Assembly (NCBI GenBank): GCA_965655095.1
Contig: OZ296651.1
Coordinates: 4,402,001-4,466,000, forward strand
Direction of reading: 5' to 3'
DNA from: Haplodiscus bocki
Taxonomy: Eukaryota
DNA: 64,000 nt
Part shown: positions 28,292-55,200 of the stretch, piece by piece
How the letters are laid out: each line of letters begins with the position of its first letter
Position numbering within the stretch: the stretch's first letter is position 1
Notes under the pieces: generated by a model
Databases searched by the model: none
Seen by the model: the letters and a program-made list of their open reading frames with translations, nothing else
Told to the model about the DNA's origin: nothing
Translations under genes and position numbers: made by a program

Positions 28292-31200
28292 GTTTGTTTG
28301 TTGGAAAACAAAGCGTTAGCACTGAAACCATTCAATTGTTTGAAGTGTGTTAGGTGTTGACAATTAAAACTTGGAAAATAATTGAGGACAAAAAAGCTGC
28401 AATCAATTAGTTAATTGATTCCCGTATCACTAATTGATATTAATAATTGCAGTAATTGAGGAATTAACAATACACTTGAAAGAAAGATACCATGAAGGAG
28501 CAAACTTAAGTGGTCAATCATTCAATGAAGGTGAAAGTAATCGTTTTGACGTTCCAATATTCCTTATTAGGTTTCAAGACAAACTATTCTTCTAAGTGTT
28601 CGGATGATGTTGTTTCTTAATTCATCCATTTCTGAAGAAATCCAGCCAGACTGAAGAAACTTTCAAAGAAATTTGACATTGGAAACAAAAAATTGCAGTC
28701 GAAATAATTTGATTCGTTGCCTTTTCTTCTGTCGTTTTTGCAGAATTGTATCTAGGAAATTCAATTGAAGCACTCGAAGATCCAGAATACCTGTTTCAGA
28801 GTACTTGCTTTCAACGATACAGGAGAATACTTATCCTCAAATTTTTGCAGAAATACTTTTTTTTCAGGACCCAGTTTTGGATTTTTTCATGCATCCATAG
28901 TCGAGCACTTGACATATCGGCTGCAAGTAACAATATTTTTGAGTCAGATCGACAATATCAATAGGTTTGAGCTCCGTGCAGACCCAATTTAATCAGTTTC
29001 GTCAAACATGAACGTTAGTCGATCGTATGTATCTATCATCCGCATCGAGTTCTGGCTTCATCAAAATGTAACGTTTGATGTTTTCCATCTAAATTTTCTG
29101 TGACGGGTTCATATTCTATGGCGATGGTTGCCAAGTACTTTTTCCTTTGTTTTTCATTTTGGACATTTAAAAATTTCGAAAAGGAGTTGACCCACTAAAT
29201 TAGGCGCAATATCACCGACGAACATGAGTTGTTTGTTGTTACAGGAGTCCGTCAAATCGATGGGGGGAGAGGGGGTGGGGTGTAGCAAAAACGTCTCCAT
29301 GCCCAGATTTGAACCTGTGCAGACGGAGAGCTCGAATCCTTTGGACAGAGGCTATCCATTTGGCCACCGACTTTCTTGCATTCCTCACTTTTGAGTTGAA
29401 TATAAATTGATGAAATTCGCTTGTAAAATCTATGGTCAAAGTGTACCCCAGATTCGAACCCGCACAGACAGCGTGTTCAAATCCGTTCGCCAGCCGTCCC
29501 AACCACTTGGCCGCGGCACCATAGCAGTAAGCCCATGAAGTTCTTTTTTGCGTTAATTCAACGAACAATCGTTTCTTGAGCTGGAATGACAGGAACACGG
29601 TTGGTAATAATTCGAGCGTTTTCGGTTGTAATTTTAACTCTCGCCCTTTTCTTTTCTGTTAATGTCGTGGTACCGGGGCCATTGCATCATGTCAATGATC
29701 TTCCCACCGATTATTCCAGTGCATACTCGGAACTTAGACATTTGCTGTTCCCACATATATGAAGGTTATTGTTTGAACGAGGGAATCTTTCCATTCCACA
29801 GACGCTGAAGGCCCTGCTTGCATTTGCAGAGAAGTATACGGAGGTAACAGATGTGACAAATACATGTGCTACAATTGAGAATGGTATTTGAGTTCTCTAT
29901 CGAATGCTCTAAGGAAAATCTGCAAAGGTTGCAAGAGAACTACTTTCTGACAATATTACTGCAAAGACCACAGAATGAAACTGAAAAACCATGTATCAGC
30001 TGCATCCCATGTTATGTTTCTGGAAGAACCTGATCGCTTCAACATAAAGCCATTAAAAGTTCCTCGTATATCTTTTTAGATGAAATTCGAAGTTTACCGC
30101 TCAGCTAGAAAGTTTGACGAATGATGTCGATTACTTGCTCGGCACAAAGAATTGAAAAAAGCAATTCTGAAACCATTGTGGAATACCTTCATCTATTTTG
30201 CTGCTGTTTCCGTCTTGCAGTGCTTTTCAAACGCGCTGTCCCAGAGGATATCGCTGCACTTGATTGTTAACTCCATTAATCACCACCATTTCCTAATCAG
30301 ATGTCATGTGCGTGCTCATTCTGGAGCAGTCCTGGCATTGTACGGTATTAGTCGAATTTTGTCGCAAAAAGAAAGACGATGCACTCTGCTCTCTTTCTCA
30401 CATTAACATTCAAAACAATTGATTATCCTCTTGCGTGTACTTACGAAATCAGCATTCATGGATTTTCGAACATTTCAAGAGTCTTCCTAATTTAAGGTCC
30501 TTTACAGTTTTTCAGAGGAGTTGTTAACTGAATCTGATTGTATGCATAGGCCGATCAATTTGATGTATTTGCGCCAAACCATTTGTTGTTTCTGCAGTAC
30601 AAAGCTGATTGCTCAGAAAATCTACCTCGAAATGAGTAATATAGCATTCGTACCTGACTCTGGTTGTTGATTTGAATGATTCCGGCGCAAAAACCACTGT
30701 TTTTGTGTCTAGGGAGTGTCTGTCCCCGGACACCACTACATTGACAGTTTTTTGCTCCAACCACCGTACAAATTTAGTTACCTAGGCAATGAAAACGAGG
30801 AAAAACTTGGATTAGGAAAAACCTGCACTGCATCCCGTGGGAAGCTGGTTCACATGCCTATTCTTTCTTGATCAGCCTCCTCATGAGCTTCAAGATTTGT
30901 TTCCTTAATTTCACTCCAGTATACGGTAACGGCAATGACAACACAATTGCTGCACAAACATCCTCCGATTAACCCTGTCCCCGAACTTGAATCACTCAAT
31001 TTTCAAAATAATGGACCAACTAGTGAGCAGCCTCCAATTGAGCCTCAACTGAACCTGAAATTAGACTCTCTAAACAAAACTACGGGCAAGTGAGACTTCT
31101 TAAACTTTTAGAAAGAACCGTAATTCAGTTGACCTCACCTGAATACTGGTGGTTGAAAGCTAGGTTCAGTTCAGTAGATAGTTTTCTTCAACTTGTATGC

Positions 31201-34200
31201 AGCAAAGAAAGTGAAAAACAAACGCCCCCAAAGACTTGATGGTTGAACGAGGCTTTGAATAGCTGAGATTACCGCCGAAAGTACTCTTCCGATTTTCCTA
31301 GACGGGATTGACAATCCTAGGTTGCCAAAACAGATTGCCAGGGACTTGCTTGACTGATCAGAGAGGAATTTCTGGAAATTGTTTTTTTTCCCAGTAGGAA
31401 ATTGAAGTAAAACGAGCAAAGATTTGTCGAGTAAAACTAGATTCTAGTGCTGCATTCATTGTTCACGCGTTTCCCCACTACTATAAGGAATTAATCTTAA
31501 AGCTGTTTTCGTAGTTTTGCTTTATACAATTTGCTATGAAAGTCTTTCTTTGCATTCAGTTTTCAAGAAGATGGAGGAGCATGCAGTTTACTCCGTAGAC
31601 GCTATTCAAGCTAATCACCTAGCTATCGACAACAATGGAAGCGGAAGATCGTATTTTGAAAAATTTGTTGTTCAGTCACTTTTTTTCACGGAAGATGCAT
31701 TAACACTTATAATTGTGTTTACTTGTTTTTTGAAAATAAACCCGGATCCGCCTCCTTGTTGAGAGCAAACAAAGTGCTTTCCGCTTTATTGTTGCTCGTT
31801 TGGATACATTTTACCGAAGCCAAACTTGTGATTGAGTTAATTTTCGCAAATGATTGACTTTTCATGTCGTTGGTAGGTGTAGGTGTTTCTGGTAAAATGC
31901 GTCTTTTATGCAATGCGTGCCTCGCCCACAACTTTTCACCGACCGACAAAACTCATTTCTTTTGCAAAGAGTATTAACCTCTCTTCGAAGAGATGGCGGA
32001 AAAGCTGGACATTGAATTTTTTCCTTGCTTGGTGTTTTGAAATAATTAAAAATCTGGAAAACTGTCTACTTGTTTTGATGTTTCTCCGACAAAATTTGCC
32101 AAGGGAAAGATTTTTCAGAATTGCTGTTGGCGGTCGTCATCAAGAATTCATTGCTTTTTTGCCAAACAGAGGTAGGTCCACCATAGCAAATGGTCACGAG
32201 CCAGTGATGAAAAGACAACTCATTGTTTGTTGAAATCAGCGAGCGACGTTCAGCAGATTGGTCACTTTGCACGACAGCTAAAGCACAAAATTTATTTAAG
32301 ATTGGTACAAAAGGGCCACATCTCAACTTCTTGCTGTTTGCTCAGTCTTTGATCTCATGACATTCGATTGTTTACGTTTCTTCAAATATAGTCGGTCCTC
32401 ACCCAACTATTTTTGGTTTTCCATCTCACCTGGTGAAAGAAACACTTTTTACAAATGCCTGGGAGAAGAGTGCATATACTGAAGCATTGGCCAGAAGACA
32501 AAAGAAGTGATTATCATCGCATTTTACATGACTAACAAACCCTTCGGCCATATCAGATTAACTAATAAATCTAAGAACTTCCTAAACATCCTTGCACGTT
32601 TTCGGCTTCAAAATCCTCTTTCACGATGAATGGATGAGGCAGGCGAGTGAAATTAACGAACTACTTGAACTCACTTGCTCTCTTCATTCGGCATGATCAC
32701 CATGTCGCCATAACCGAAACAATATCACTGACTTTTAATGCTTCGCTCTTTTTTGGCTCGCTATTTTTACCTGCTGACTTCAGCCTTTCGGCAATGACGT
32801 CAAGAAGTTTTCATCTTCCCAAGAGCCGAGACACAGTTCACTTTCCATTTTGTATAGGGTTGCTGCAGTGAAGACACCAAATTCCTATAGGAATGTGCAT
32901 TCAACATTTTTAATTGTAACATCCCTTTCAAAGGAAACCATATGATACCTTACGAGAATGAATTGAGGGTCTTGTAGCACAAGTAGAACATCGAATAAGC
33001 AGCCAATGAAAGTTTTGTTGTCAGTCAGAGGCATTAATTTACTCCGGGGAATCAGTTGCCCCATCATTGGGTTTTTTGTCACAATGAGTTCACTCGAAAT
33101 TATTTTGATACCGAACGGAAATTTTTTTAAAGAACAACCGAAAAAACCACATTCAGTAGACGATCCAACATTAACGCAAAGGTTGCATAATCTAAACTTT
33201 CTCCGACGACAACTTCTTACAAATAGAGAAACAGCAAAACCGGCTGCAAAAAAGGAGAAACACAAAAATGTGAAGAAGCAGCGGTGCTAGAAGTTGTCGG
33301 TCAAGAGTTTCCGTGCACTGTCAATGATTGAACCTCGTCAATGTGAGAAGTCTACTCCTTTACCGAAGAAATTTCAAGAGCATGCAGTTATTGGAATTAA
33401 AAATGGTTTGCAGACGATTGATTACAGTCCAACGTCAATTGAAGGAACAACTTCTTTCTCCAACGACAACTTCCTACAGATACAGGAGCAAAAAAAGCGG
33501 ACACAAAAGGAAAAACAGATACAGGTGAAGGAGAAGCTGTGCCAGAAAATGCTGGTTCAAGAGTTCTTAATAAAATTCAAGACTATAAATGCTTCAACCT
33601 CATCAACTCGAAAAGTCTAATCCGTGACAGCAGGAGAATGCAGATTTTGAATCCAGTAATGAAGGTGTGACGGTTGGTGACCTTTCATTGTCATTTGAAG
33701 CAACAACCTTCTGAAACTTGCAGCAAAACATTTAAACAGTTGCACGATCGAAAATCAAATTATTTTCGGAGATTTTCGACATTTCTGCCTAAATAGTCGC
33801 AAACCGCCAGGCCAAAGTGTCAAATCAAAAGTTTACAGAATAAAGTTGCTAAGAAGGAACTACGAAACCGCGGGAAGCTGTCGAAGGCTGAAGACCATTA
33901 TTCTTGCGGTGCGGCTGGAAATGGAAGTTTAAAGAGTCTGCAAAAACCTAGCAAACTCAAAATTTGAACCTTTTTGAAGGAAAATTACCCACACGAAATA
34001 TCCATTTTTGTATGAAAATTTCCCCGCCTCAAAATCTTCGCCTACAGCGTTAACGAAATTTGTTCGGTTTGTTCAATGGACGTGGCTTATGGTGACGAAT
34101 TGGCCAAATACCATATTGGTTTCAAGTTTCTAGTCGCAGTTATGTCTTTTCACGTTATCTGCGAGTGGTACTGTTGCGAGCAAGAAGTGCTCATGGCGTT

Positions 34201-37200
34201 GTCAAACCTTTTGAAAATTGATTGATCGAGTTCAACCCCAAAAGCTTGAAACCGAGTTTAAGGGAGCGTTCAAATTTTTATGACAAAAAAGGCCTCGACA
34301 CACGCAACAGCAAGTGAAACAAAATCCGCTTGCTGAACGAAACATCGGCTTACTTAGAAGCAATCTTCAGAAGCATTTGTGGACCTGTCATTACATGACG
34401 AGATTGCAGTCTTTTGTTAGCAACTTCATTTCTCGGGTAAACCGTGTTAATCGCTGAGCACGAAACAGGGTTACAGTAAAGGTTGTGCGATTTTTGGTTT
34501 CTGTAGCTGCAGAACACTCATCGAAGTCTGTCACTAAACCAACATTCGCAATTGGTAATGATGTTCGAATAGCGAAAGAAGGTTTACTGTTCAACAAGGG
34601 CTACAAACAAATCTTCACCAACGAATTTTTTACAGTCACTAAAATTGTCACTCAACCCACCATGCTATTCAACGAAAAAAGACCATCAAAGGAAACTTTT
34701 AAGAGCTCGAGTTAACAAAATTAAATGGATGAATTCAGCATTTACCTCGAATATAGGGCTCTGATGATTTTTTGCCCCAAATGCAATAGTTGGTTTTCGC
34801 AACCTACTTTGCACGTCCAATTCAACTAAAGACCGACTGCTGCATGGTTTTTTTCCTGAAATCATTTTTCCTCTGAGCTTCGAAAACGTTACAACAGACG
34901 ACATTTTCATTTGCACGCCAATAATACCAGTAAATTTTCTCCAAACTGATTTGGTAAAATTTCTAGTATCTCGTGAGAGCTGGGAAGACAATGCAGAATT
35001 CCCTTCAGGTGATTAAAAAAATTTGAAAGATGTCTCCAAAGTATTGGAAGTTGTCTTGTCGGCAAGTACAAAGATTATGGTAAGAAGACTTAACCACTGT
35101 TTAGTTTCAAATCCACCATTCTCAAGGCCGGGACATGTTCTTTTCAAATACGAGTCTCACTGAACAACATGTTGCGGGTGTCAAGTCACCATTGTTGCGA
35201 ATCATTGATAGTCGAAGAAGTGTGTCGAACGGCAGCGTAGAATTTAATTCAACAAAAGTTCGAAAATTCTCCAATTAGAGAAGTTGCTTACCAGCACCAT
35301 TGAGGAAGTTCAAATTGAATTTGTTACTGGTCGAAGATTTCCGTCAGTTGGTATTGGAAGAGTTGCATTGACCTTGAAAGTCATAAGTTTTGAAAATGGG
35401 GCAGTACAGTGGTAGAAACTGTCGAGAAGCAAGAAGTAAGATCAGCAAAAGGAAAAAGCAAAGTCTTCAAACAGAAACTTGTCGAAGAGATGTCGGTAGG
35501 ATGTTTTTTTAAACAGTCAAAAATGTTGCCTGAGATTTTAACTGTTGAAGCATTTCTTAGTTCACTTCCTTTTTTGAAGGTTGACCTGTAATAATCACTT
35601 TTGCTACGTCATTCGGGCAGAAAATTCGCCCCGTTTGTGCTCCGAATGGACCAAGACTGAAATTTGGAGTTGCAGGTGATCGAGGCATTTTTTCATCTAC
35701 AAAACTATTGCCGGGACATAAAATGTAAATTGAGCAATCCAGATGGAATAGATGTAACTTACGAAGCTACAGCCACTGCAAACAGTGATTGGCCACTATT
35801 GGTGAATAACCCGCTGGTTGCTATGTTTTCTGATTGCAGTATAACGGCAAATGTATAACGTTTTCGGTCGACAGTGTGCAGAGTTGGGACCAAGAAAAGA
35901 TTTTCTTTTCAGAGTGCCCATACAAAGATTGGTTCTCGTGGGGACAACAGTGCTAGATTGCTTGGCGGTAAATGGACGCTCCAATTCAGTTACCAAAAAT
36001 TTGTATTGAACCGTATCACTGCTTATCGTAACAGTTTTCCTACTGCTTGAACATCCTTGATAACGGATACTGACCAAAAGTTTTCTGACTTCATTTGATA
36101 TCCTTCGAATATCTACAGTTTGTCGACTGTATTGGCATCATGGGTTGTTCTCTCGACAAAATGGCCAGTTACTTGCCAAAAGTGAAGTTCAAAATTTTAT
36201 CTAGTTGCTCCTGCAGCCACACCGAAGCAGACAGCTACTTCATCAAAAAGGGCACTACCCATATTTTTTATAGTTTGACGAGGTTGACAAATTTGAGGAG
36301 GCAAAGCTACCACCAAGAGAATAGTAGAAAGGTTCTTTTCGTATTGGGGAGTGATCAGTCATTCCAGCTCAATGGCAGCACAATAAAAAAAGTATAAATC
36401 AGCCTAAACTGCACAAAGTTGGGAGACGGTCAGGATTTGTACCTGAAAACGAACACCGCGATAGTTGCATGCGTTGGTGGGGAGAGTTTCGTGGGCTCTG
36501 CTACAGAACAGTCTCGACAGCGCTCATTGTTTTAACATGCTCTCATCACTCTCTCTTTGTTTTCCTCAAAAAGTATTAGGTGTATTTTGAAATTGTGACA
36601 AAGGGCGCATTTGGAAATGGTTCAAAAAATGATTCTCGGGGAAGTTTCCTCAAATTATGGCAAAAGGTTTTTCAAAGCCAACAATGTTGAAAATCATTAG
36701 TATAACGACCAGGAGACTTACGGGTTATTGATCGATGGAAACAACTCACGATGGAATATTGGAAAAATTTCCACTCCTGTTGAATGGTTCCCAAACAATG
36801 CAAACTTGCAACGTCAACTGGATCTTGGAGGCATCGAATCTGTCAGCATTTAGGTATGTTATTTGAGCTGATTTGCTTTATCCTGTTAAACTTCATGGTA
36901 GGCGTCAAGACTTCCCACTAGCCCCCCCACAATAGAAAAAATTGACTACAAACGTTTCGAATTGAAAATCTTGGAACAAATCAGAGAGAAACGCTAGAAA
37001 AACAGTTGGGGCAAGAAGTGGATACAAGCACTCGCTGACAAAAATAACTGTACCCTCTACTACCTGATTTTGCATGTCACCTTTGGATTAAAAACACGAA
37101 GGTCTACTGAGTGCTCAGAAGTAGGCAATCGTTCTGGTTGAAACCAGACATGCAACTGAAAGCTGAAAAAAGGAAGCAGGCGCAGAACAAGTTTGAAGAA

Positions 37201-40200
37201 AGTGTCGTCAAACTGATGAACAACTCATCTTACGGTCAGACCCTTAAAAGCGGAAGGAATCGAGTGTCCCCTAAGCTAGTGTTTATTTTTATAACTGCAT
37301 AATTTATATAACTGCATAATGACTTTCAATTTCGGAAACAAGTTGGTTGGCGAACGAATCCGACAGTCTGGGACTATTCCGAAAATGTATTCTTTTCTGA
37401 TCGGAGGATTGCATGAATTATCAGCCAATGATGGCACTCAACTTGCGCAGCGGCAGCTTACTCACGATCATCACAAAAAAGTCCTAAAATCAGGAAAAAC
37501 TCTGGATACAGTCAACTCAAGAATGGGATGGAAGCTCCATCAGCTACAAAAATATACAGTGTAAAAGTTATCCTTAACTAACTTTGACGACAAGTGTTTC
37601 ATCTGAGAGGACGGCGTAGCAACTTTGTCGACTGGACACTACTTCATAAGAGACGTTCATGTTTCCCAAAGCATCACACATTACTTTGATTGGGGTACGA
37701 GGAAGCACCACCAAGTGCAACGTGGGATGCCCTGATTGGCAATCACCCCATTCAAGCCATTGGTGAAACTCAAAACGAATGAATCTCCTATCGGATGCTG
37801 AGTCATCGCAATTTGAAAACGCACGTTTATCGTTAACACAACAGAAGATGGAGGCTCTGGTCACCACCCGATGCTGGCTTGCATTCAGGAGTTCTTAGTT
37901 TGGGAGTTGGGAGATGAGATACTTGATTTCGGTCAAGGTTTCGTGCTGGAGCAAATTCCGGAGCGCAATCCATTCATAAACGATGCATTAGATGGAGCTT
38001 CGGAGGAACCCGCCAAAGAATGCGACAGATTTTTTTTTTAATGAAGAGACTGTCCAGTCGTTGTGTTCCTTACACGGAAGATGAAGCAAATGCACTGCAG
38101 GACTTGGAATATTTGATTGATTTTGACAACTGGTACAGTGATGAAGATGTCGATAACCTCAGACTGGCGAAAAGTGGACGCCATCAGATGAAAATTGGCT
38201 GCGAATGAAAACAGACGGTTCGTGTGTGATGTGATAAAACTCGAGATAGATTCCTGTTGCAATGGCTCTGTGTAATCAATTCGCATAATGTAATAAATTT
38301 TGAGATTTGTCTTTACTATGTAAGATACTACTCTCAAGTACTTGCTCAATGTTACCTCAAGTGGTTTCAATTTGAATGAATTCAATTTTTTGGTAAAATC
38401 TTATTGCGCGAATCAACAACTGTTGGAAAGTCACAGCAGTAAAGAGAGAGTCCAAGAGAAGTTAAACTCTTTTCTTATATAGATGCCTACTGCTAGCCAA
38501 AACAATCCAAAGGGTCCAAATATGTATGCGTATATTACGTATGTTCCATCAGTTTTCCGCTAGTTGCGTAATGCCAGCCGAAACACTGCAATAGTCCAAG
38601 TATGTATGCCAATACTGGGTACATTCCAACATTCTTTCACTATCAAGATGCGTACAGGATGCCCGAACAGCCTATGTGTCCAAATATGTCTTCGTATTCT
38701 CTGTATATTGCATTAATCTGTCACTTTATAGATGGCTCCTGCAAGCAAAAGCAATCTAAGGTTCCAACTGTATGCGTGGAGTATGTACATTCCGTCACTC
38801 CTCCACTGTGCAGATGCCTTCTGCCACCCAAAAAATCTGAGAGTCCAAAATTTTTCTGCCTTCACTAGGCAAATTCGAACAATCTTTCACTTTGAAGTTG
38901 CCTACGGGATGCTAAAATAGTCTATGAGTCCAAATATGTATGCGTACTCTCTGTACATTGCATCAATCTGCCACAATATAGATGCCTTCTTCAAGCCAAG
39001 TCTATCTACGCGTCCAAATATCTATGCCTTTTCTAGTTATAATCCAGCAATCTTTCACTATATAGATGCGTACTGCCAGGCAAAACATTCTAATAGTCCA
39101 AATTTGTATGCCTATACTAGGTTTACTCCACCATTTTTTTTTCATTTTATAGTTGTGTTTTAATGTACTTGACTTCTTAGTTATTCATGCTGTTAGGAAT
39201 CCTACTGCTCTTCAAACATCCTCGCTAAGCACCCTGTTACGTGATGTGCTTCAGTGTCACGTTATGCATGTTAGTTCTATGCGTGATATTATCCTGTCAG
39301 ATTTCAAGTATGGGATTGTTTCTAAATGTTCTTCGGTCTGATGAAGAAAAAATGGAAAGCAATGGTCAGTTGATCACAACAACAAACGTAGTTCGAAGGT
39401 GAATGAAAAAACTTGACCTGGAAATAATCAGTTGCGTGGGCTTTAAATTAGATGCCATTCGATTGATTCTTAGGCCGGAAGAGTTATTGGTGAAAATGCA
39501 TGCGAACAAAAGTCTGAATCTGGTTCTCACCACCGCAACTAAATGAAATCCAGCACCCTCAATCCGACATGCTAAGGCAGTGCATTAGTGTAGTAGTCGA
39601 TTCATTCATGTACTCTAAACTTTTTCAAATAAGCGAATGGGTTTGAAAGTATTTCAATAACTTCAATGTCTCCGGGACTTCCATAGCGCCGAGTAAACGC
39701 TTTCGATAAAGTTTTTTGTACCACACAAAGAAATCACATTATTTTCAACCGAGGAATCATTTAATCCTTCTATTGTTTTCGTTTTCTTGGCAACGTATGA
39801 TATGCCAATTCCTCTTGCATTAGGGGCTTTTACAGTTGAAACTTGAACTGGGCTCATTCTACCACGACCCTCTTGTTTGACGGTACGGTATAATGGGCCT
39901 CATTGCCAATACAATTCAAATGCTCCGCCTCTATCACGTCGATGTTCAGCTTTGCGGTTTTTAGAGCCCCTAAGATTAACTGCACGATCACGCTCTTTTT
40001 TCAACCAGCCCAAAAAACTTGCTCGAGGGATTGTCAAATTTTCATTTTGCAAAAGTTCCATCTCCCGCGATTCTTTTTGAGTTACTTTGAACAACTGCGT
40101 TTATTTTTCTGATTTTTAGTTGTCTACAAAAGTTGCCATTGTCCTCATGTGAAAATTGTTATATGACAGACCAGACCTCTTTTATTCGCAACAACTAACT

Positions 40201-43200
40201 CATGCATCATGTATTATGTTGGATTTCACGTCCGTCATCGTGTAGCATAGATTGCAAGACTTCATAGGCGAGGGTCATCAAGAAATCAATGGTATCTGGC
40301 TCTTTCATCCTTAGCGGTTGTGAGAACAATTGAACCAAGTCTTTAATCTTCTTAGATTTGACTAAACGCCCTAGCTTTGTCTTGGGTTTCTTGAATTCAA
40401 TTCCCGCTTACAGCTCCTTTCAAAGATCAAACTAGCTAGTTCCAATAGAAGCCCAAAAGTAGGAGCCCAGTATGTAATTATATTTTGTACCCCTGAAATG
40501 ACTACCAGCTCAAGAATTCCAGCTCTTGAATTTGTGCGACTCAAGAGTTAATGGGTCGAATTCCAGTATTATCAAGCGTCAGACAGTTTGTGATTACAGA
40601 ATAAACGAACATTTCGAATAGAGCGTCATGAAAACTGTCATAATTTGTTTACCATACCAGGTACATAATACCTGGTTGACTTCTCGGCTAAATAGTGTGA
40701 TATGAAAACAATGTGGCATAGATTGAAAACTATTCAAATGTAATACACTGGCATATTGCAATCATTATGACTCATCAAAATTCTAATTACTACCCAATAT
40801 TGCAAATCAGTTGGAGGAGTACTGAAGCCTGGTTCAATAAATTTCAACGACGCACAAAAGTTGCCACATGAGGTTCGAATCCGGGGGAAGCGATTGGTGC
40901 ATTATTACAAAGCACAAAAATGCAGTTACAACACTTTCAACTCAGTAGCATATAAAAAGGTTCTCCATCGGATCGTTGGGCGGATAGATACGTTCTCTGG
41001 CCGACGGACTTGAACTTTCCGTCAGCGGAGGTTCGAATTCGGGCGTGAAGAAATTTTTACGTCACACCCCCTCCCCATTGATTTGACGGACTCATATAGC
41101 AACAAACTACTAACATGTATTATCTCGCACCATTAGGGCAACTAGACAGGGACACTTGGGGTTGGCTGTGGTAAGAGGTGTCGTTTCGTATTGCTCGCAG
41201 ATAGCTGACATGCGCCTTAGTACCACAGTTCAAAAACATTCAGTCGATTCCGATAAAACTCACCAAGACTGCAATCTTCTGCCACATCTTACAACTGACC
41301 ACTCCTATGATTGGAGAAGACGCTCTGTTTTAATCGTTGTTCAAGTTATTGCGCATCCGCAATATTTTTCCAAGCTGTATTTCTCCTCACGATTGCCGTT
41401 TTTACGTCGTTTTACTTGTCCATATCATAGCAGTTCATTGGTCTCAGGTAAGTGATTTGTTCTACTTGGTCATTGAGTTGGTTTTCCATTCAAATCTTGA
41501 TTGTTAGAGTTTCTCTGTACTGTATTTTTCAGTTTTTTGGCTTCTTGAAAACTCAGTTGTACTTGTTCGATTTTCCAGCGTGCTGACTTGTTTTAATTGA
41601 ATATAAGGCGAATGACTGCTATAGTCATTCGTACTTGATACATTTGTTATATTTTTGAGAATTAACTGAGTTAATCAGCTTACTGTTCAATTGCTTGATC
41701 AGTAGTTTTTTTAGAACGTTGTGCCTTTCAATAATCAGCCATACTTGTTGAATTTTTTTCACTGGCTTTCCGTTGGCGGAAGTGTTACGAATCACTTTTT
41801 CTTAAGTGCCTATTCTTTCCTTCATTTATTTGCACAACTATCATTTATTTATTTGCTCAATTTGTTCCCACCGGACACTTTGAATCGGAGTTTTCATAAC
41901 TCTGCCGAAGAATCTTCGCTCAAAGTCCGATTTTTGTACAAAAGCTCGGAAAAACATTAATTTATGAGATGTCTCCTAAAACTTTTTCCCAAAATGTTCC
42001 TTTGGACATGTAGATTGCAGTTTTGGCCACCCTGCTGAGAATTATTGCTCAAAATTCTAATCAATATCTAAAGCTGTAGATTTTCCAAAAAACGCTGATA
42101 ATATTCATCTGAATACCTAGAAATGAGTTTAGAGAAATGTCTATTTTTCTATTTACTGTGCTAAGAGGGGGCCGCATTGCACCCTAGGGTGCCTGTTTTT
42201 TGTGAAATTGTCAGCGATCTTTTTGGAGCCATTACTTACCGCCCTCAACGGAAATTATCGCGGCGCTGCTGCACTTCTTGTGTGTAGTTTTTAACTGTAA
42301 GATTTTCTCCAGATTTCGATCGATTTTGTGAAATTTATGCTCAAATTCTTCCCACGTTTGCTTCTGATTCCGACATGAGTCAAATTTTCAATTGTTTCTC
42401 TTCAACTACTTTCTCAGTTTTTTCTTTTACGACTTCATCGAAAGTATTTCAAATTTGAATTTTCAGAACATTTTTTAGAGCCTTTGTTCCAATATTTTGT
42501 AAATGATGGTCCAAACAATGAAACTGATGCTTATGATGTCAGGTTGTGTCGTTTTTCTGAATGTTTTTCCTGCTAAACTACCCAACCATCTCTTCTCATT
42601 TGCGGCTTCCTGCACAAGTTTTGTATGTAACTTCATAACCGGAAGATTTTCTCACATTTTGTCTCAATTTTTCATGATTATTGTCCAGTTACTGCTACAA
42701 ATGCCTTTGATGTCATTAGTCTGTTTTTTAAATGCTTTCTCTCTGAAGCTACTCTCTCAATTTTTTTGTCAAGCTTAGTTGAGAGCATATCATATGTAGA
42801 TTGATATTTCAAAAATTAAGGGCAATTTTGGCCCCAAATTCGTCTGATGCCGATTTTGGTCAAATTCCCAATTACTGTTTCTCTGACACTACCCACTCGA
42901 TTTCATCTTTTTTACCGTTTAATTGACAGGAGTTTTTGTGAACATTCACTTAACGTGATGATTTTCACCTTTTGTTCATTTGCTGATAATTTTCTGCAAA
43001 TTTTGCTACACATGCATATGATTTCAATTTTTGTCATTCTTCCAAAATATTTTATTTCTTGTAAGCTACCACCTAGCTTCTTTTCAGTCATGGCCTATTC
43101 TGTGCACTTTTATTTGTGATTTTTTAGGACAGCAGTTTTTCGATCTTTTGTTCCAATTTTTATCGGACGGCGTTTTATGTCCATTTTAGTTGTTTTTGCT

Positions 43201-46200: not shown

Positions 46201-49200
46201 ATTATCAATTTGCCTACAAACTTGGAGAAAGAGACCACGCATCGCTACGGTTCGAACTCATTTAAACTCCACAGGTTGTTTCTATAACTTGTCGTAATTC
46301 TATGTAATGCGTCAAAAAGTATCTTCAATGAAGAATCGAACTGACATGTTTGCAGGTTACCTGTTCCCAGAACGGGAGAGGTGTTGGGTCTTGTGGGAAC
46401 CAATGGAATTGGAAAATCGACTGCTATCAAGGTGCTGGCTGGAAAGTTGAAACCGAACTTGGGAAAGTACGAGGTAATCACAAAATTGAACTACTGATTA
46501 TTTAACGCTCAAAAACAAGGCAGTAACTGATTCGACAGAGAAAAGTCCCTGAAACGGGAAACACAAAATTTGAAAAGCACCAGAGCGTCTCTCTTTGAAG
46601 TTTTTTTGGCTTCAGACGGAAATTGTGGAAAACTTTAATTACCTGCCCTTTTGGAAACCCAAATCCTCAGACTTTTGTTCTTGGCCTGTCGGTACTTTTG
46701 CTTCTCTATTTGCAAAATGCTCTGCTTTGCTTGCCACTTTTGGTCAACTAACTAAGTATTATTTGCCTGGGCAGTAAATGAAATTTTGGAATTAGGTCAA
46801 TCACAGGGGCCTTGAAAGAACACAAGTCACTGTAATAGTCGGGTCCTTCTTAAGAGAGAGCAGACTCAAAATAAGTTGAGCAAACTCCTAATTTTTAAGA
46901 GTGCCACGATAAGTGGAAAATGTTTGTCTAGTATTTAGATTACATGTGCTGCTCCTCTATATTTTCCTGTTATATGACAATGATCTATTACTTTTAAATT
47001 GTCACCCAATCTGGAATACTTTTTACTTTGTTTTGATCTATTTTTTCTTTGATATAAGGGGAAATGTATTGGCTTTTAATAAGAAAAGGTTGCTCACACA
47101 TCCAACATATTTCTGCTTTTTTAAAGTTTTCGTCATCTTCTTCACTCATATTTGTTCTTATATATTTTTTGAAAATTACTCTCATTTCTTCTAAAGCTAT
47201 TTTACATTCAACAAATTGTTTCACACAATATGGGCCAAAATAACGCTTGTAGCTAGTTTTCAGATGATTTTCCAACTCAGAAGCTATTGTTAAACCCCAA
47301 CTGGTAGCGCTTTCTTCTTAAATGTTTATTGTGTTTCTTAATATTTATGTTAGAAGGCATCTTGTTCTTACCTTCAAAATCAGCAATCCCTAAAAAGTAA
47401 AATCTTAATTTTTGATAGAAGTCCTTAAATGCGAAAGAATCTTTTCTTGGAAAATTCATTAAACAAGGTTTATGTTCTAAATATATTTCTTGGTTATTTT
47501 AAATACATCTTTTGTTGAAAAATTAGGTGAGCAATTTCTACATAATTCTTTATCTTTTGTTCCTATGATTTTTTTTTATTTTAATTTATTTTTGAATTAA
47601 GCAATATTGATTTCTATAAAGTAATAAATCTACAATTCTCTCTCCAGAATCATGGTGTGCACTTTGCGCACACTCACCTTTGCGGAGCTTTTCGTTTTTG
47701 TATATTGGTAAAAAAACTAAGGGGCTTGCGGGGCCCTAATTCTTCTTCATCAATCTCAAAGACGTGTATTGATAAGGTTTTTACTTTTTCAAATTTGAGG
47801 ATGTCTTTAGTTTGTAATCCATTGTCAAAGTTTCTACCCTTTTTGTTTATGGTATTAAAATGTTGTATATAAATGCTAGTTAGAGAAACATCTGTTTTCG
47901 CAGGATGTAAAAGAGCTGAAGTACCAATTAGCACAGTAATTATCTTTTATCTTTTACGATTATAATTGACCTATGATTTACAGGCAGTTTAACATAACTT
48001 GTGCCTCCCATAGTATCTAATCTAGAAAGTTTGACATGCATGCTTTGTTTTCCTAACTAACTCCAACCAAATCCATTTCATTGTTTGTCTTCCTTTTCGA
48101 AAAAACATTAGGCTGTAAATTAATGTTCTTTATTGAATCTGGTGTTGTTAATTGCTTTTGTCCTAGGTTTATGCGAACCTCATTCAAATATATAATTTGA
48201 TGGGATTCATGTGCATCAGTAAAATCATGCTCTAATAACGCATAGAAAGATACAAGATATCTAAAATTGTGTCTTCTAATTATACTTGCAATAGTTCTAC
48301 AAATTTCTCTGACTAGTGGATCTTTATCAACTTCAGCAAAATAATCATAAGCTGTTATTCCAACAATACCATTAGCAAATGAAAGACCAACTGATTTTAA
48401 TTGAGATTTGTAGTAAAGTTGTTGATCTTTGTTAAGGGTAAAAGGATTAGTTGTGGCTTCTGCTCTTTTTTTGTTTTCAAATTGATTATCCTTACCAGGT
48501 TTTAGGATTGATTTTCTTGTATGAGCAATGCCTTTATTATATTTTTCTCTATTTGGTATTTCAACAAGAACTTTACAAATATGACAATGATTGTAGTTTC
48601 GTGAATTAATTTTTTTCTCACATTATCACAATGGTCTTTGGTGTTTTCATGTTACCTTTTATAGAGAAGTTGTTAATATGTATTACAAATATCGCACTCA
48701 ACTTTTTGACAATTTTGTTGTTGGTTTCTGTCATAAATACTTTGACATTTATCACATCTATTTTTTTCCTGTTTCAACTAAGAGTTCATATGATTGTAAA
48801 TGTTTTTCATATGCTTTAGGGAAAAGAGTAATGTTACGTAGGCTAGAATGGAGTTTATTTGTTTGTCCTAAATTGTAATTGTTTTTGGGATTTTATATGT
48901 TATTGATAAAGTTTATCTTGCACATTTCACACATCTTCATATTTGTAGTTCTTGACGACGACTAATTATTTTTCAGGTGTAAAATTATTTGAATTGATTT
49001 TTCATTCAGCGTAGCTTGGTGTATATTTGATTTTATATATCTGTAATAGGCAGTTCTATTGAAATGTCTATTGCCTACATGACAAAGTTTAGTATTTGGT
49101 TTGGCTTCAATTAAATTGAAAAACTCACCAGCATAAAGTTCAACTGTTTTCGTCATTTAGTTTATCCAAAAGGTAGATAAATTTTTTGTTACGTGCCAAC

Positions 49201-52200: not shown

Positions 52201-55200
52201 GACTGGAAGAGTTTGCAGATCAATTGGAATTGAATCACGTGTTTGATCATAACATCGGAGATCTCTCTGGAGGAGAGTTGCAAAGATTCGCCATTGCTGT
52301 CGTGTGTATTCAGAAAGCTGACATGTAAGGCTTGCTAATCTTACCATTTTACATTTCTTCTTCAAAATGAAATGGGAAAGGAAGTCAGATGGTTGAACAT
52401 GTACGAAACAATATATTTTTTTTTGAGTCGCACAGAAGGAAACGATAAATTACGCAAACTTGCAAGTGGGTATAGCTGGCTGAAGTAAATTGCTTGGGGC
52501 TAGTTAGGCTTTGGTTACTTTTTTCAACGAACCGTCCCATTGAAATTCTGGTTAAAAACTTGGCGAATTATATAATTTATATCAAAAAGATGGTAATTAG
52601 TTGGGTCTGGTCGCGGATCCATTTCCAAAACTAATTCATTTTGAATTGCAATTTCGCCCTCGTCTAGTTTCAGTCTATGGAAAGATTGTCTTGCATAGCT
52701 TTCTTCATGCCATCTATGTTATGTTTAGTTTCATGTTTGACGAGCCCTCAAGTTATCTGGACGTGAAACAGAGATTGAAAGCTGCAACGGCCATCAGAGC
52801 TGTTCTTGAATCCCACAAGTAAGAATGGCGTCTTCAATTCCAACCAATGAGAACCAAAATGAATGTTTGTTTGGTATGACGCGTTTGTTTTTGATTGGCC
52901 AGGTATGTGGTTGTTGTGGAGCACGATTTGAGCGTGTTGGATTACCTATCAGACTTCATTTGTGTTTTGTACGGACACCCTGGCGCTTATGGTGTCGTCA
53001 CTCTTCCATTCTCAGTGCGAGAAGGTTAGATATACAATGGGCATCTTTTAATCAGTTGTGAGTTGACTAGACCCTAGACAACTTTTTTACGTCTTCTAGA
53101 TTTTCAGTAGAATGATGTCAATTGACTGGGAGTGTTTTTCAGGTATTAACGTATTTCTGGACGGGTTTGTGCCAACAGAGAATTTAAGATTCAGGGAGAG
53201 TTCATTGCAGTTCAAAATCAGCGAGACAGCTGAGAGAGACAGTGACTTGAAACAGATGCGAAGATATCATTACGGCAACATGATGAAGAAATTGGGAGGT
53301 AGATAGTCATTAAATGTCTTCCTTCTTCTGTTACTTGAGTTTAGCAGCCCATCATTGACAACTTTCAGGCTCTCAAGTGGTTTTCAATTTAGTTGAAACA
53401 TTACAAAAACCAGTGTCAAATTTTTGAACGACGACATTTCAGAAAATGTTCCGGGAATATTCCTGCAGCTTTGTTGAGAAATTCATTTGGTTTCATGAAT
53501 TAGCCAAATTAGTCTAACTTTGCACTGATTTGAAATGTGTATGAGTGTATTTTGGACTGAATTTTTGGAAGATTTAATCAGGTCACACATATTCTGAACT
53601 CATGTTCGAATTGTTTTGCAGAATTCGAGTTGAGCATCGAAAGCGGACAATTCACAGACAGCGAAATTGTTGTAATGATGGGTGAAAATGGAACTGGAAA
53701 AACTACCTTCATCCGGCTACTTGCTGGTCGCCTGGAACCAGATGAGGGTGACGCAGTTCCAGCGTTGAACGTCAGCTTCAAGCCACAAAAGATCAGTCCA
53801 AAATCCGAAGGAACTGTCCGGTTACTTTTACACGAACGAATCAGAGATGCTTACATACATCCACAATTCGTTTCTGACGTCATGAAGCCCCTAGATATTG
53901 AAAACATCATTGACCAAGAATTGCAGAACCTCTCAGGAGGTGAACTGCAACGTGTTGCGCTTACTCTATGTTTGGGTAAACCCGCAGATGTGTTTCTAAT
54001 CGACGAACCCAGCGCTTACTTGGACTCAGAACAACGTATCATGGCTGCCAAAGTCATCAAGCGGTTTATCTTGCACTCAAAGAAAACGGCATTTGTGGTC
54101 GAACACGATTTCATCATGGCTACATATCTAGCCGATAGAGTCATAGTGTTTGAGGGTCAACCCGGGATCAAGACGAAAGCATTAGCGTGAGTGTTAATGT
54201 TTAAGGACGTGATCATGGTTTTATGCATCCTGCTTCGGCATCCTGAAACTAAGTTACTTTCTGGTAAAATTATAAAATTAAAGCAAGATATCTACATGTT
54301 TTGCTCAAGTTCGTGTCATGAGTCAAATTCTCAACACTTAGAAACATTTTGTCAAAATAGTTTTCTTAGGAACAACGTGTGCACGTCAAATAAAAAGCGC
54401 CTTCAGTCCAAGATTCGTCCCGAAGGCTATGAAGTTTATAGTTGATGAAATCGATTTGATTTTTAGGCATCAAGTGAAGCTTAATACTTTTTTATTTTAT
54501 GGGTTTACGTTTTTGCAAACGCGCCGTGATTGACTTATTGAGCGAGGCTGAGTGGTAGTGTTCCATATACAGCTGTTTCTTCGACTATTCAAAAGCATTC
54601 GACAAAGTGCAACACAACATACTCTTTGAGATTCTCTCAGAATTGGTGATAACCGACAAGGATCTAGGACTGATACAGAACGTATTTTTTGCTAGGTTTT
54701 TGTTAAAGTAGACAAATGTACGGTCAAAAAAATTCGCAGACGATTGCGCCAAGAATATAAGCTCTAACCTTACCGGTTATCGCTGTACCGGTAAGGTTAG
54801 AGCTTATATTCTTGGCGCAATCGTCTGCGAATTTTTTTGACCGTACATTTGTACTTGAAAGAAGCTGATAACCAGAATGGCATAGTCGTTGGCGGTATGA
54901 ATCTTGATATGGCACACAAAGAAAAAAAGTGATAGTGAAGCACAGTTCTTAGTTAATTTTATTCGTTCTTCGCTTCCTGAACGGACCTCGTTGTTTACTC
55001 TCTCGATTTCAAGTACTTGTGCTAATTGATGTTCTCAAATATCAATTTTTTTCTCAAATTTGTCAACTAAATTCTTATCACATTTTCCGCTGTTTCAAAA
55101 TGATGAATATTTATCGCGTGGAAAAATTGTCGACTATCAAAGCGTCGAAAAATGCACATTATTCAAAGCGTTGAAATTTTCAAATTATGAGACGTTTTGA

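Follow-up and report, generated by a model that had tools for sequence, protein, structure and literature searches.

The window, a 64,000-nucleotide stretch of Haplodiscus bocki DNA, contains a decayed Maverick at 29227-41111, bounded by identical target-site duplications (TSDs) of 6 bp. The element is 11.9 kb long and broken. Its inverted ends (29227-29265 and 41073-41111) belong to a terminal inverted repeat (TIR) that reaches about 145 bp. Its features, in window coordinates, are as follows.

29221-29226, strand not applicable: left 6-bp TSD, AACATG, same letters as 41112-41117
29227-29286, plus: left terminus (AGT-type end) and G run, TIR subfamily B, from the inverted-end and TIR comparison
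29287-29373, minus: left outer tRNA-Ser-derived unit; A box 29356-29366, inward B-box remnant 29329-29339, outward B box 29305-29315, T5 29287-29291
29369-29445, plus: left spacer, resembling subfamily-A subterminal DNA
29424-29520, minus: left inner unit, joined to internal DNA; A box 29503-29513, inward B box 29474-29484, outward B box 29450-29460, first T4 29425-29428
31801-32037, plus: decayed P-loop (putative packaging ATPase) remnant, tblastn with the younger-Maverick ORF L130:263-607
34227-34652, plus: decayed rve integrase remnant, tblastn E 5e-9, query ORF passing PF00665
35600-36080, plus: decayed major-capsid-like remnant, approximate, placed via sister copies
37099-37281, plus: decayed protein-primed PolB motif remnant, tblastn E 1e-9, query ORF passing PF03175
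40805-40900, plus: right inner element; single B box 40872-40882, poor A-like motif at 40812
40951-41058, plus: right outer unit; TATA 40951-40958, degenerate A box 40977-40987, inward B box 41006-41016 (minus), outward B box 41030-41040, T5 41054-41058
41059-41111, minus: right terminus and G run, from the inverted-end and TIR comparison
41112-41117, strand not applicable: right 6-bp TSD, AACATG, same letters as 29221-29226

The element is a Maverick by its AGT-type TIR ends, 6-bp TSD and rve and PolB remnants. AGT-type ends, TIRs, 6-bp TSDs, integrase and protein-primed PolB, and mostly degraded copies are also traits of Mavericks/Polintons with (AGT)2 ends (PMC8097293), and the window element and its family share all of these, the integrase and PolB as remnants. 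It differs from the Mavericks described there in that the TIR of its family holds a tRNA-derived RNA polymerase III (Pol III) unit; the words 'tRNA' and 'polymerase III' are absent from the available text of PMC8097293. Among 13 end pairs of the family, TSDs agreed at 6/6 positions in the window element and in E49/E48, at 5/6 in two pairs, at 4/6 in two and at 3/6 or fewer in seven. One of the 44 open frames of the window element matched PolB in Pfam, weakly (E 0.03). Queries for tblastn were ORFs of younger Mavericks from the same genome, those for integrase and PolB being Pfam-confirmed. The ATPase-like query owes its label to a weak P-loop family match, and the ORF adjoining it (L130:611-1282) matches 11 of 23 family stretches. 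The capsid-like query resembles double-jelly-roll clusters in the atlas with a score below the recognition threshold, and is a lead. Sister copies of the family match both of these weakly labelled ORFs of the younger Maverick. A degenerate tandem repeat region at 38460-39160, within the element, is common to sister copies.

The first-pass annotation of this DNA had described tandem, outward-facing, tRNA-like Pol III units in both TIRs. All four B boxes that it named are present, as B-box-like 11-mers at 29305 and 29450 (minus) and at 40872 and 41030 (plus), with spacings of 145 and 158 bp. GGTTCRAAYY has six matches in the 64 kb, four of them in the two Maverick ends, which is above chance. 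A cluster of B-box-like and TTCGAA motifs also lies outside the element, at 46249-46342. The A boxes attributed to the left units were found, a good one in the outer unit and one with a single mismatch in the inner unit, as were the T5 runs that end both outer units. In both right units of the window the A box is degenerate, and the B box at 41030 is altered at one invariant C. The TATAAAAA ahead of the right outer unit is present at 40951-40958, but it stands at -19 rather than -29, after a 10-bp gap relative to copy L006, whose TATA is at -29. The left inner unit is the usual left unit of the family, and its TATA at -29 has decayed.

Four B boxes are thus in place, but the symmetric tandem design read from them is not. 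The two spacers resemble each other no more than shuffled sequences do (414 of 1000), and the left one scores 21.6 against subfamily-A subterminal DNA, versus 14.7 +/- 1.3 for shuffles (0 of 200 reaching it). The right inner element, present in three right ends, fits the unit profile at its B box alone (5.4 bits) and is not the mirror of the left inner unit. From the asymmetric spacers, the likeness of the left spacer to the subterminal DNA of the other subfamily and the right inner match at the B box alone, we infer that a newer end was added outside an older one, of which the left spacer is probably a remainder.

A survey of the family places the window copy in context. Internal DNA used as a query against the 1.5-Gb genome returned 60 matches (59 with an identity of 65-76%), and a TIR profile run on 60 stretches from the genome gave 61 end matches. 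Removal of three inner duplicates, two tandem copies, one near-identical copy and one inverted duplication left 54 independent ends. Right ends were found with a profile that includes the unit and are biased toward unit-bearing ends. One whole or partial unit was found at 46 ends, two units at three, and one unit plus an older inner B box at two; three ends had none detected. Among left ends tied to internal DNA, 2 of 32 had two units. The unit holds a fixed position just behind the terminus in 46 of the 54 ends, and several right ends retain only part of it. The family rule is one unit per end, and the tandem pair is not the family design; the extra units in a few copies, including the window's, would be later end duplications. 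The family has two TIR subfamilies, distinguished by 10 of 56 terminal columns, by none of 74 unit columns and by 1 of 320 internal-DNA columns. All family copies seen are decayed, and the family described here is a once-active, extinct lineage in one genome. Two further arrangements of its ends were seen. A 277-bp mini element (L015:1263-1539; G000:C1:85151039-85151315), of which one copy was seen, consists of two Maverick ends alone, with one whole and one partial unit, inverted repeats and a 6-bp TSD matching at 5/6. At G000:C3:90.708-90.719 Mb (L025, L027 and L029), one Maverick left end with its flank is present in three tandem copies, 4.6 kb apart.

The proposed tRNA-Ser ancestry of the unit was borne out by an ungapped match of its D and T regions to host tRNA-Ser(CGA) and tRNA-Ser(AGA). 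Counted over ungapped columns, the agreement is 15/19 for the D region, 16/16 for the T region and 5/7 for the 5' anticodon strand, but 2-3/22 for the middle and 1/10 for the 3' acceptor strand; the span, 61 nt, is identical in the unit and these genes. Over 42 D, anticodon and T columns, Ser(CGA/AGA) matched at 36, Ser(GCT) at 32 and Leu(CAG) at 28. Against host tRNA genes the TIR profile gave up to 28 bits for Ser, 18.5 for Leu(TAA) and 12-16 for Arg, with no match to Lys or Thr tRNAs, and a search with the A-box plus B-box pattern retrieved host tRNA-Ser and tRNA-Leu genes along with the units. The original observation is partly confirmed: it is real and narrower than first read, with one tRNA-Ser-derived unit per end.

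The poorly matching middle of the unit is the reverse complement of its T arm, and the resulting 12-bp B/anti-B palindrome is paired in 381 of 453 cells. It reads as a second B box on the inward strand, mostly TTCGAA. An anticodon-type stem-loop with TGA had been put forward at this place. Of the four window units, two show TGA, and the motif is a B box in reverse complement; among 38 aligned units, that column holds C (paired to G) in 25 and T in six. The supposed anticodon loop is instead the inward B box with a C-to-T change. Three other accounts of the unit were considered and set aside. An origin from tRNA-Arg(TCG), whose anticodon loop yields the same hexamer near a B box, needs two insertions and scored lower, and is improbable. 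Capture of a host tRNA gene with its 5' flank did not fit, as the flank profile matched none of 110 host upstream regions; one host Ser(AGA) gene has TATAAA at -29. An inward-facing A box, making the unit a bidirectional gene, is present as a one-mismatch motif whose columns are poorly kept (0.48-0.83). The host genome also has tRNA genes for Ser, Arg and Lys in large tandem arrays, where some copies carry variant anticodons, at L185-L198 (G000:C7 near 38.93-39.03 Mb), L141-L154 and L155-L168; one array gene in L160 was called tRNA-Stop(tta).

Type 2 Pol III anatomy is complete in the sequence, with an A box, a B box at tRNA spacing and a T4+ terminator. T4 runs follow the B box in 37 of 50 ends compared with 9 of 50 controls. 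Upstream, at -34 to -21, TATAWA was found in 8 of 23 left units versus 5 of 460 control windows, and a sequence within one mismatch of TATAAA in 20 of 23 versus 52 of 460. Four further flank groups (E24, E30/31, E37/39 and E41) have a TATA as well, between -27 and -31, though most non-left flanks have none; its columns are no better kept than background, and it was noticed after the fact. Two of 30 distinct host tRNA flanks have a TATA.

Column identities were taken from 23 of the 32 left ends, with dimers, truncations and insertions left out. They were 0.87 and 0.86 for the B boxes, 0.82 for the A box, 0.83 for the loop, 0.85 for internal DNA and 0.71-0.73 for the terminal 68 bp, a flat decay except for the variable termini. 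The comparison of A and B boxes with the rest of the TIR, which the first-pass annotation had proposed as a check, therefore divides: conservation of the boxes exceeds that of the terminal 68 bp, is weakly above that of the remaining unit and, by plain identity, equals that of internal DNA. Variants common to both ends of one element served as a proxy for changes that preceded insertion (12 pairs, not independent; chance floor about 0.5-1%). Such shared changes were found at 6 of 300 positions in the boxes, 14 of 254 in the rest of the unit (Fisher p 0.038) and 71 of 639 in the terminal part; p was 0.07 on the seven TSD-supported pairs and 0.16 for B boxes alone. None fell at the 12 invariant B-box positions, inward box included (0/111), and the five shared B-box changes all fit the B-box consensus. 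The inward B box, which lacks a conserved A box, was spared as much as the outward one. E30/E31, whose inclusion gave p 0.004, was rejected as a TIR pair, being an inverted duplication over 1.1 kb with no TSD. At L136:1-1146 and L137:201-1372 (G000:C4 near 92.72-92.73 Mb), a Maverick end and the flank outside it are part of a 1.1-kb inverted duplication; another inverted pair, of 730 bp, lies inside it, and no Maverick ORF match was found there.

Together, the TATA, the T run and the fewer changes in the boxes suggest a once-functional Pol III unit. The shared-change test lends modest support to selection on the boxes, and the retention of promoter regions with loss of the stems, relative to tRNA-Ser, points in the same direction; for the unit as a whole, evidence of selection, drawn from an extinct lineage in one genome, is modest.

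Our preferred reading, held tentatively, is that the unit was kept as a TFIIIC/Pol III landing site beside each Maverick end, with a role in cis. An ancestor would have taken up a tRNA-Ser(NGA) gene near one end, and end-to-end copying would have carried it into both TIRs; a template switch may then have swapped the 22-nt middle for an inverted copy of the T arm, preserving the A-B spacing. TATA, A box, B box and T run would yield a hairpin transcript of about 90 nt ending 50-80 bp short of the end. TFIIIC and TFIIIB, bound 70-170 bp inside each end, could keep the origin open or mark a chromatin border, so that the presumed benefit in cis would be an open, factor-bound zone beside the protein-primed origin and a border with host chromatin. 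TFIIIC sites exclude nucleosomes, and Mavericks replicate from their ends by protein priming. Since it faces outward and stops short of the terminus, the unit cannot drive the genes of the element.

Several observations weigh against the cis reading: a TATA and a terminator fit a transcript no less than they fit a binding site, B boxes are absent from a young related family that replicates, and opposed B boxes also occur in unrelated fold-back repeats, so that a palindrome can arise without purpose. Symmetry of the ends does not imply function, as one capture copied between ends gives the identical picture. Nor does analogy imply the suggested shielding from silencing. The nearest analogue of an insulator, the IR-L and IR-R boundary repeats of S. 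pombe, resembles the Maverick ends in that B boxes in inverted repeats flank a domain of 10-20 kb, yet these repeats, whose B boxes are bound by TFIIIC, promote silencing of the domain that they enclose; they also differ in being chromosomal, with five B boxes each and no Pol III bound (PMC7474672). Adenovirus, a related protein-primed replicon with Pol III units, offers a parallel in favour of the cis reading, with host-factor sites in its inverted terminal repeat (ITR) just inside the terminal origin and within the core origin; the ITR sites are those of NFI, Oct-1 and Sp1 and are not A or B boxes, whereas the Maverick family has one 90-nt tRNA-derived unit per end (PMC2397415).

It is also conceivable, but in our view rather unlikely, that the product is what matters: a Pol III hairpin RNA of about 90 nt, acting in trans as a VA-like decoy or small-RNA precursor and doubled by the two TIRs. 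The unit has all the parts of a gene (a TATA near -29, both boxes and a T run), which would serve this purpose, and a hairpin likewise requires a constrained anti-B arm. Better-kept copies fold below shuffles (z -1.7 to -5.8 in five of six sister copies, -2.4 in the window left inner unit), but the other three window units fold no better than shuffles. Across 38 aligned units, pairing in the hairpin is no better than chance (457 of 500 shuffles pair as well) and no consensus fold was found. The suggested check for covarying stems gave none, for hairpin or cloverleaf, in a test whose power is low under neutral decay after insertion. All five shared B-box changes keep to the B-box consensus, but two of them disrupt the hairpin. 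The tRNA-like fold fared no better, a cloverleaf in tRNA-Ser register pairing 48% of cells, the same as shuffles. ARAGORN at its default threshold called no tRNA in the window or in 39 loci and, at a relaxed threshold, called one copy Ser; Rfam had no match to window or sister units.

Known Pol III RNAs bear on a product-based role in both directions. Foamy-virus LTRs furnish a precedent: these terminal repeats, which belong to an integrating virus, contain Pol III miRNA cassettes made up of an A box, a B box, a hairpin and a terminator. The foamy virus differs in being a retrovirus whose RNAs have demonstrated expression and processing, and the available text gives no tRNA origin for its cassettes (PMC3993851). 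Adenovirus VA RNAI and RNAII, the models invoked at first, form an internal tandem pair of about 150-160 nt outside the ITR (PMC2397415). The likeness to this pair falls with the finding of two units in 2 of 32 left ends, and VA RNA membership was rejected for a single terminal unit of about 90 nt with neither covariation nor an Rfam match, set against a tandem internal pair of about 160 nt with a conserved fold. A combined version, in which a host tRNA-Ser gene became the Maverick's own Pol III small-RNA gene with a double-B-box hairpin in both ends, working as RNA decoy and end-bound chromatin element alike, strikes us as unlikely. If the small-RNA-gene reading were true, it would be an independent parallel to adenovirus VA RNA and the foamy-virus LTR RNAs, and the first in a Polinton.

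The unit could, finally, have been a passive hitch-hiker: a tRNA gene or SINE head in a master TIR, copied to both ends, made palindromic by template switching and never functional. We consider this quite unlikely. Such a history would accommodate the equal identity of unit and internal DNA, the partial units at right ends, the look of the copies as a short burst from few masters, the young related family that does without the unit and the B-box palindromes of unrelated repeats. It has more difficulty with the remodelling of the tRNA gene, since an acceptor strand and middle that are unrecognisable beside well-matched D and T regions are hard to obtain without selection on the boxes. Shared changes that spare the boxes, and a TATA at equal spacing in unlike flanks, also speak against it.

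The Maverick unit has its closest counterparts in build in the retrotransposons Helenus, Ajax and Cassandra (TRIMp3; Kojima 2024, PMC10886601). These, too, have a Pol III promoter that stems from a gene for a small RNA in their terminal repeats, with boxes kept and tRNA fold lost, but they are retrotransposons with direct LTRs, a PBS and a PPT, whereas the Maverick family has inverted repeats and is a DNA replicon. In Cassandra, Pol III transcribes the element itself, which the Maverick unit, facing outward and ending at a T run, could not do (PMC10886601). Protist Polinton-like viruses carry intact, ARAGORN-detectable tRNA genes, so relatives of Polintons do pick up tRNA genes; theirs are intact, with no TIR location stated in the available text, compared with the remodelled TIR unit here (PMC12220804). 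Our search of freely accessible literature, most of it covered at the level of search listings, found no report of a Pol III or tRNA-like unit in Polinton TIRs. To our knowledge, little is known about cis signals in Maverick ends or about Maverick non-coding RNA. A host tRNA gene pared down to a promoter beside a replication origin would be a testable candidate for both, and would extend the Cassandra/Helenus pattern of captured small-RNA promoters in terminal repeats from retrotransposons to a protein-primed DNA element.

Searches for free copies agree with the earlier view that the units are part of the TIR rather than independent SINE insertions, in that DNA and pattern searches of the genome found no free SINE copy. 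An opposed-B core had 24 matches in the whole genome: ten tRNA-Arg(TCG) array genes, ten Maverick-type ends (at eight places) and four unrelated. Among the 100 matches listed of 195 to the A+B pattern, four are units; three of them lie at known ends and the fourth at a site that is diverged but resembles an end. Every place matched by a 286-bp query was a Maverick end, and the right inner motif had just two genome matches. No SINE tail or own TSD was seen on unit copies, and the G run next to the unit is not a polypurine tract, since the same G run occurs in the unit-less young family. Membership in Helenus (TRIMp3), which needs direct LTRs with PBS and PPT and a 4-5-bp TSD, was rejected, the Maverick repeats being inverted and the TSD 6 bp. 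An origin of the units by insertion of a free SINE or a Helenus-type solo LTR into Maverick ends is consequently most improbable, even though the unit resembles a tRNA-derived head and the searches rest on 100 of 195 A+B matches, on exact patterns that miss decayed copies and on a DNA search that skips very common words.

So far, the unit is confined to a single extinct lineage of this one genome. In the young related Maverick family, full TIRs were present in five of six copies, and a B box was found in none of the six within 30 kb. That family is very abundant (24,883 first-look integrase candidates, 145 of them scored; L224-L241), and its TIRs, of 540-870 bp, are packed with short tandem motifs and have no B box. 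No B box was found in an AT-rich family, nor in the part examined of one related viral contig. Viral contigs gave no matches to the unit, a protein search for relatives returned a near-self match alone, and none of 21 metagenome matches had Maverick ORFs or ends. In eight metagenome contigs (L248, L249, L251-L254, L256 and L258), two opposed B boxes form the centre of long fold-back palindromes that lack Maverick features; these look like inverted dimers of a tRNA-derived repeat. In the window itself, a perfect 66-bp inverted repeat with a 9-nt spacer lies at 54712-54852.
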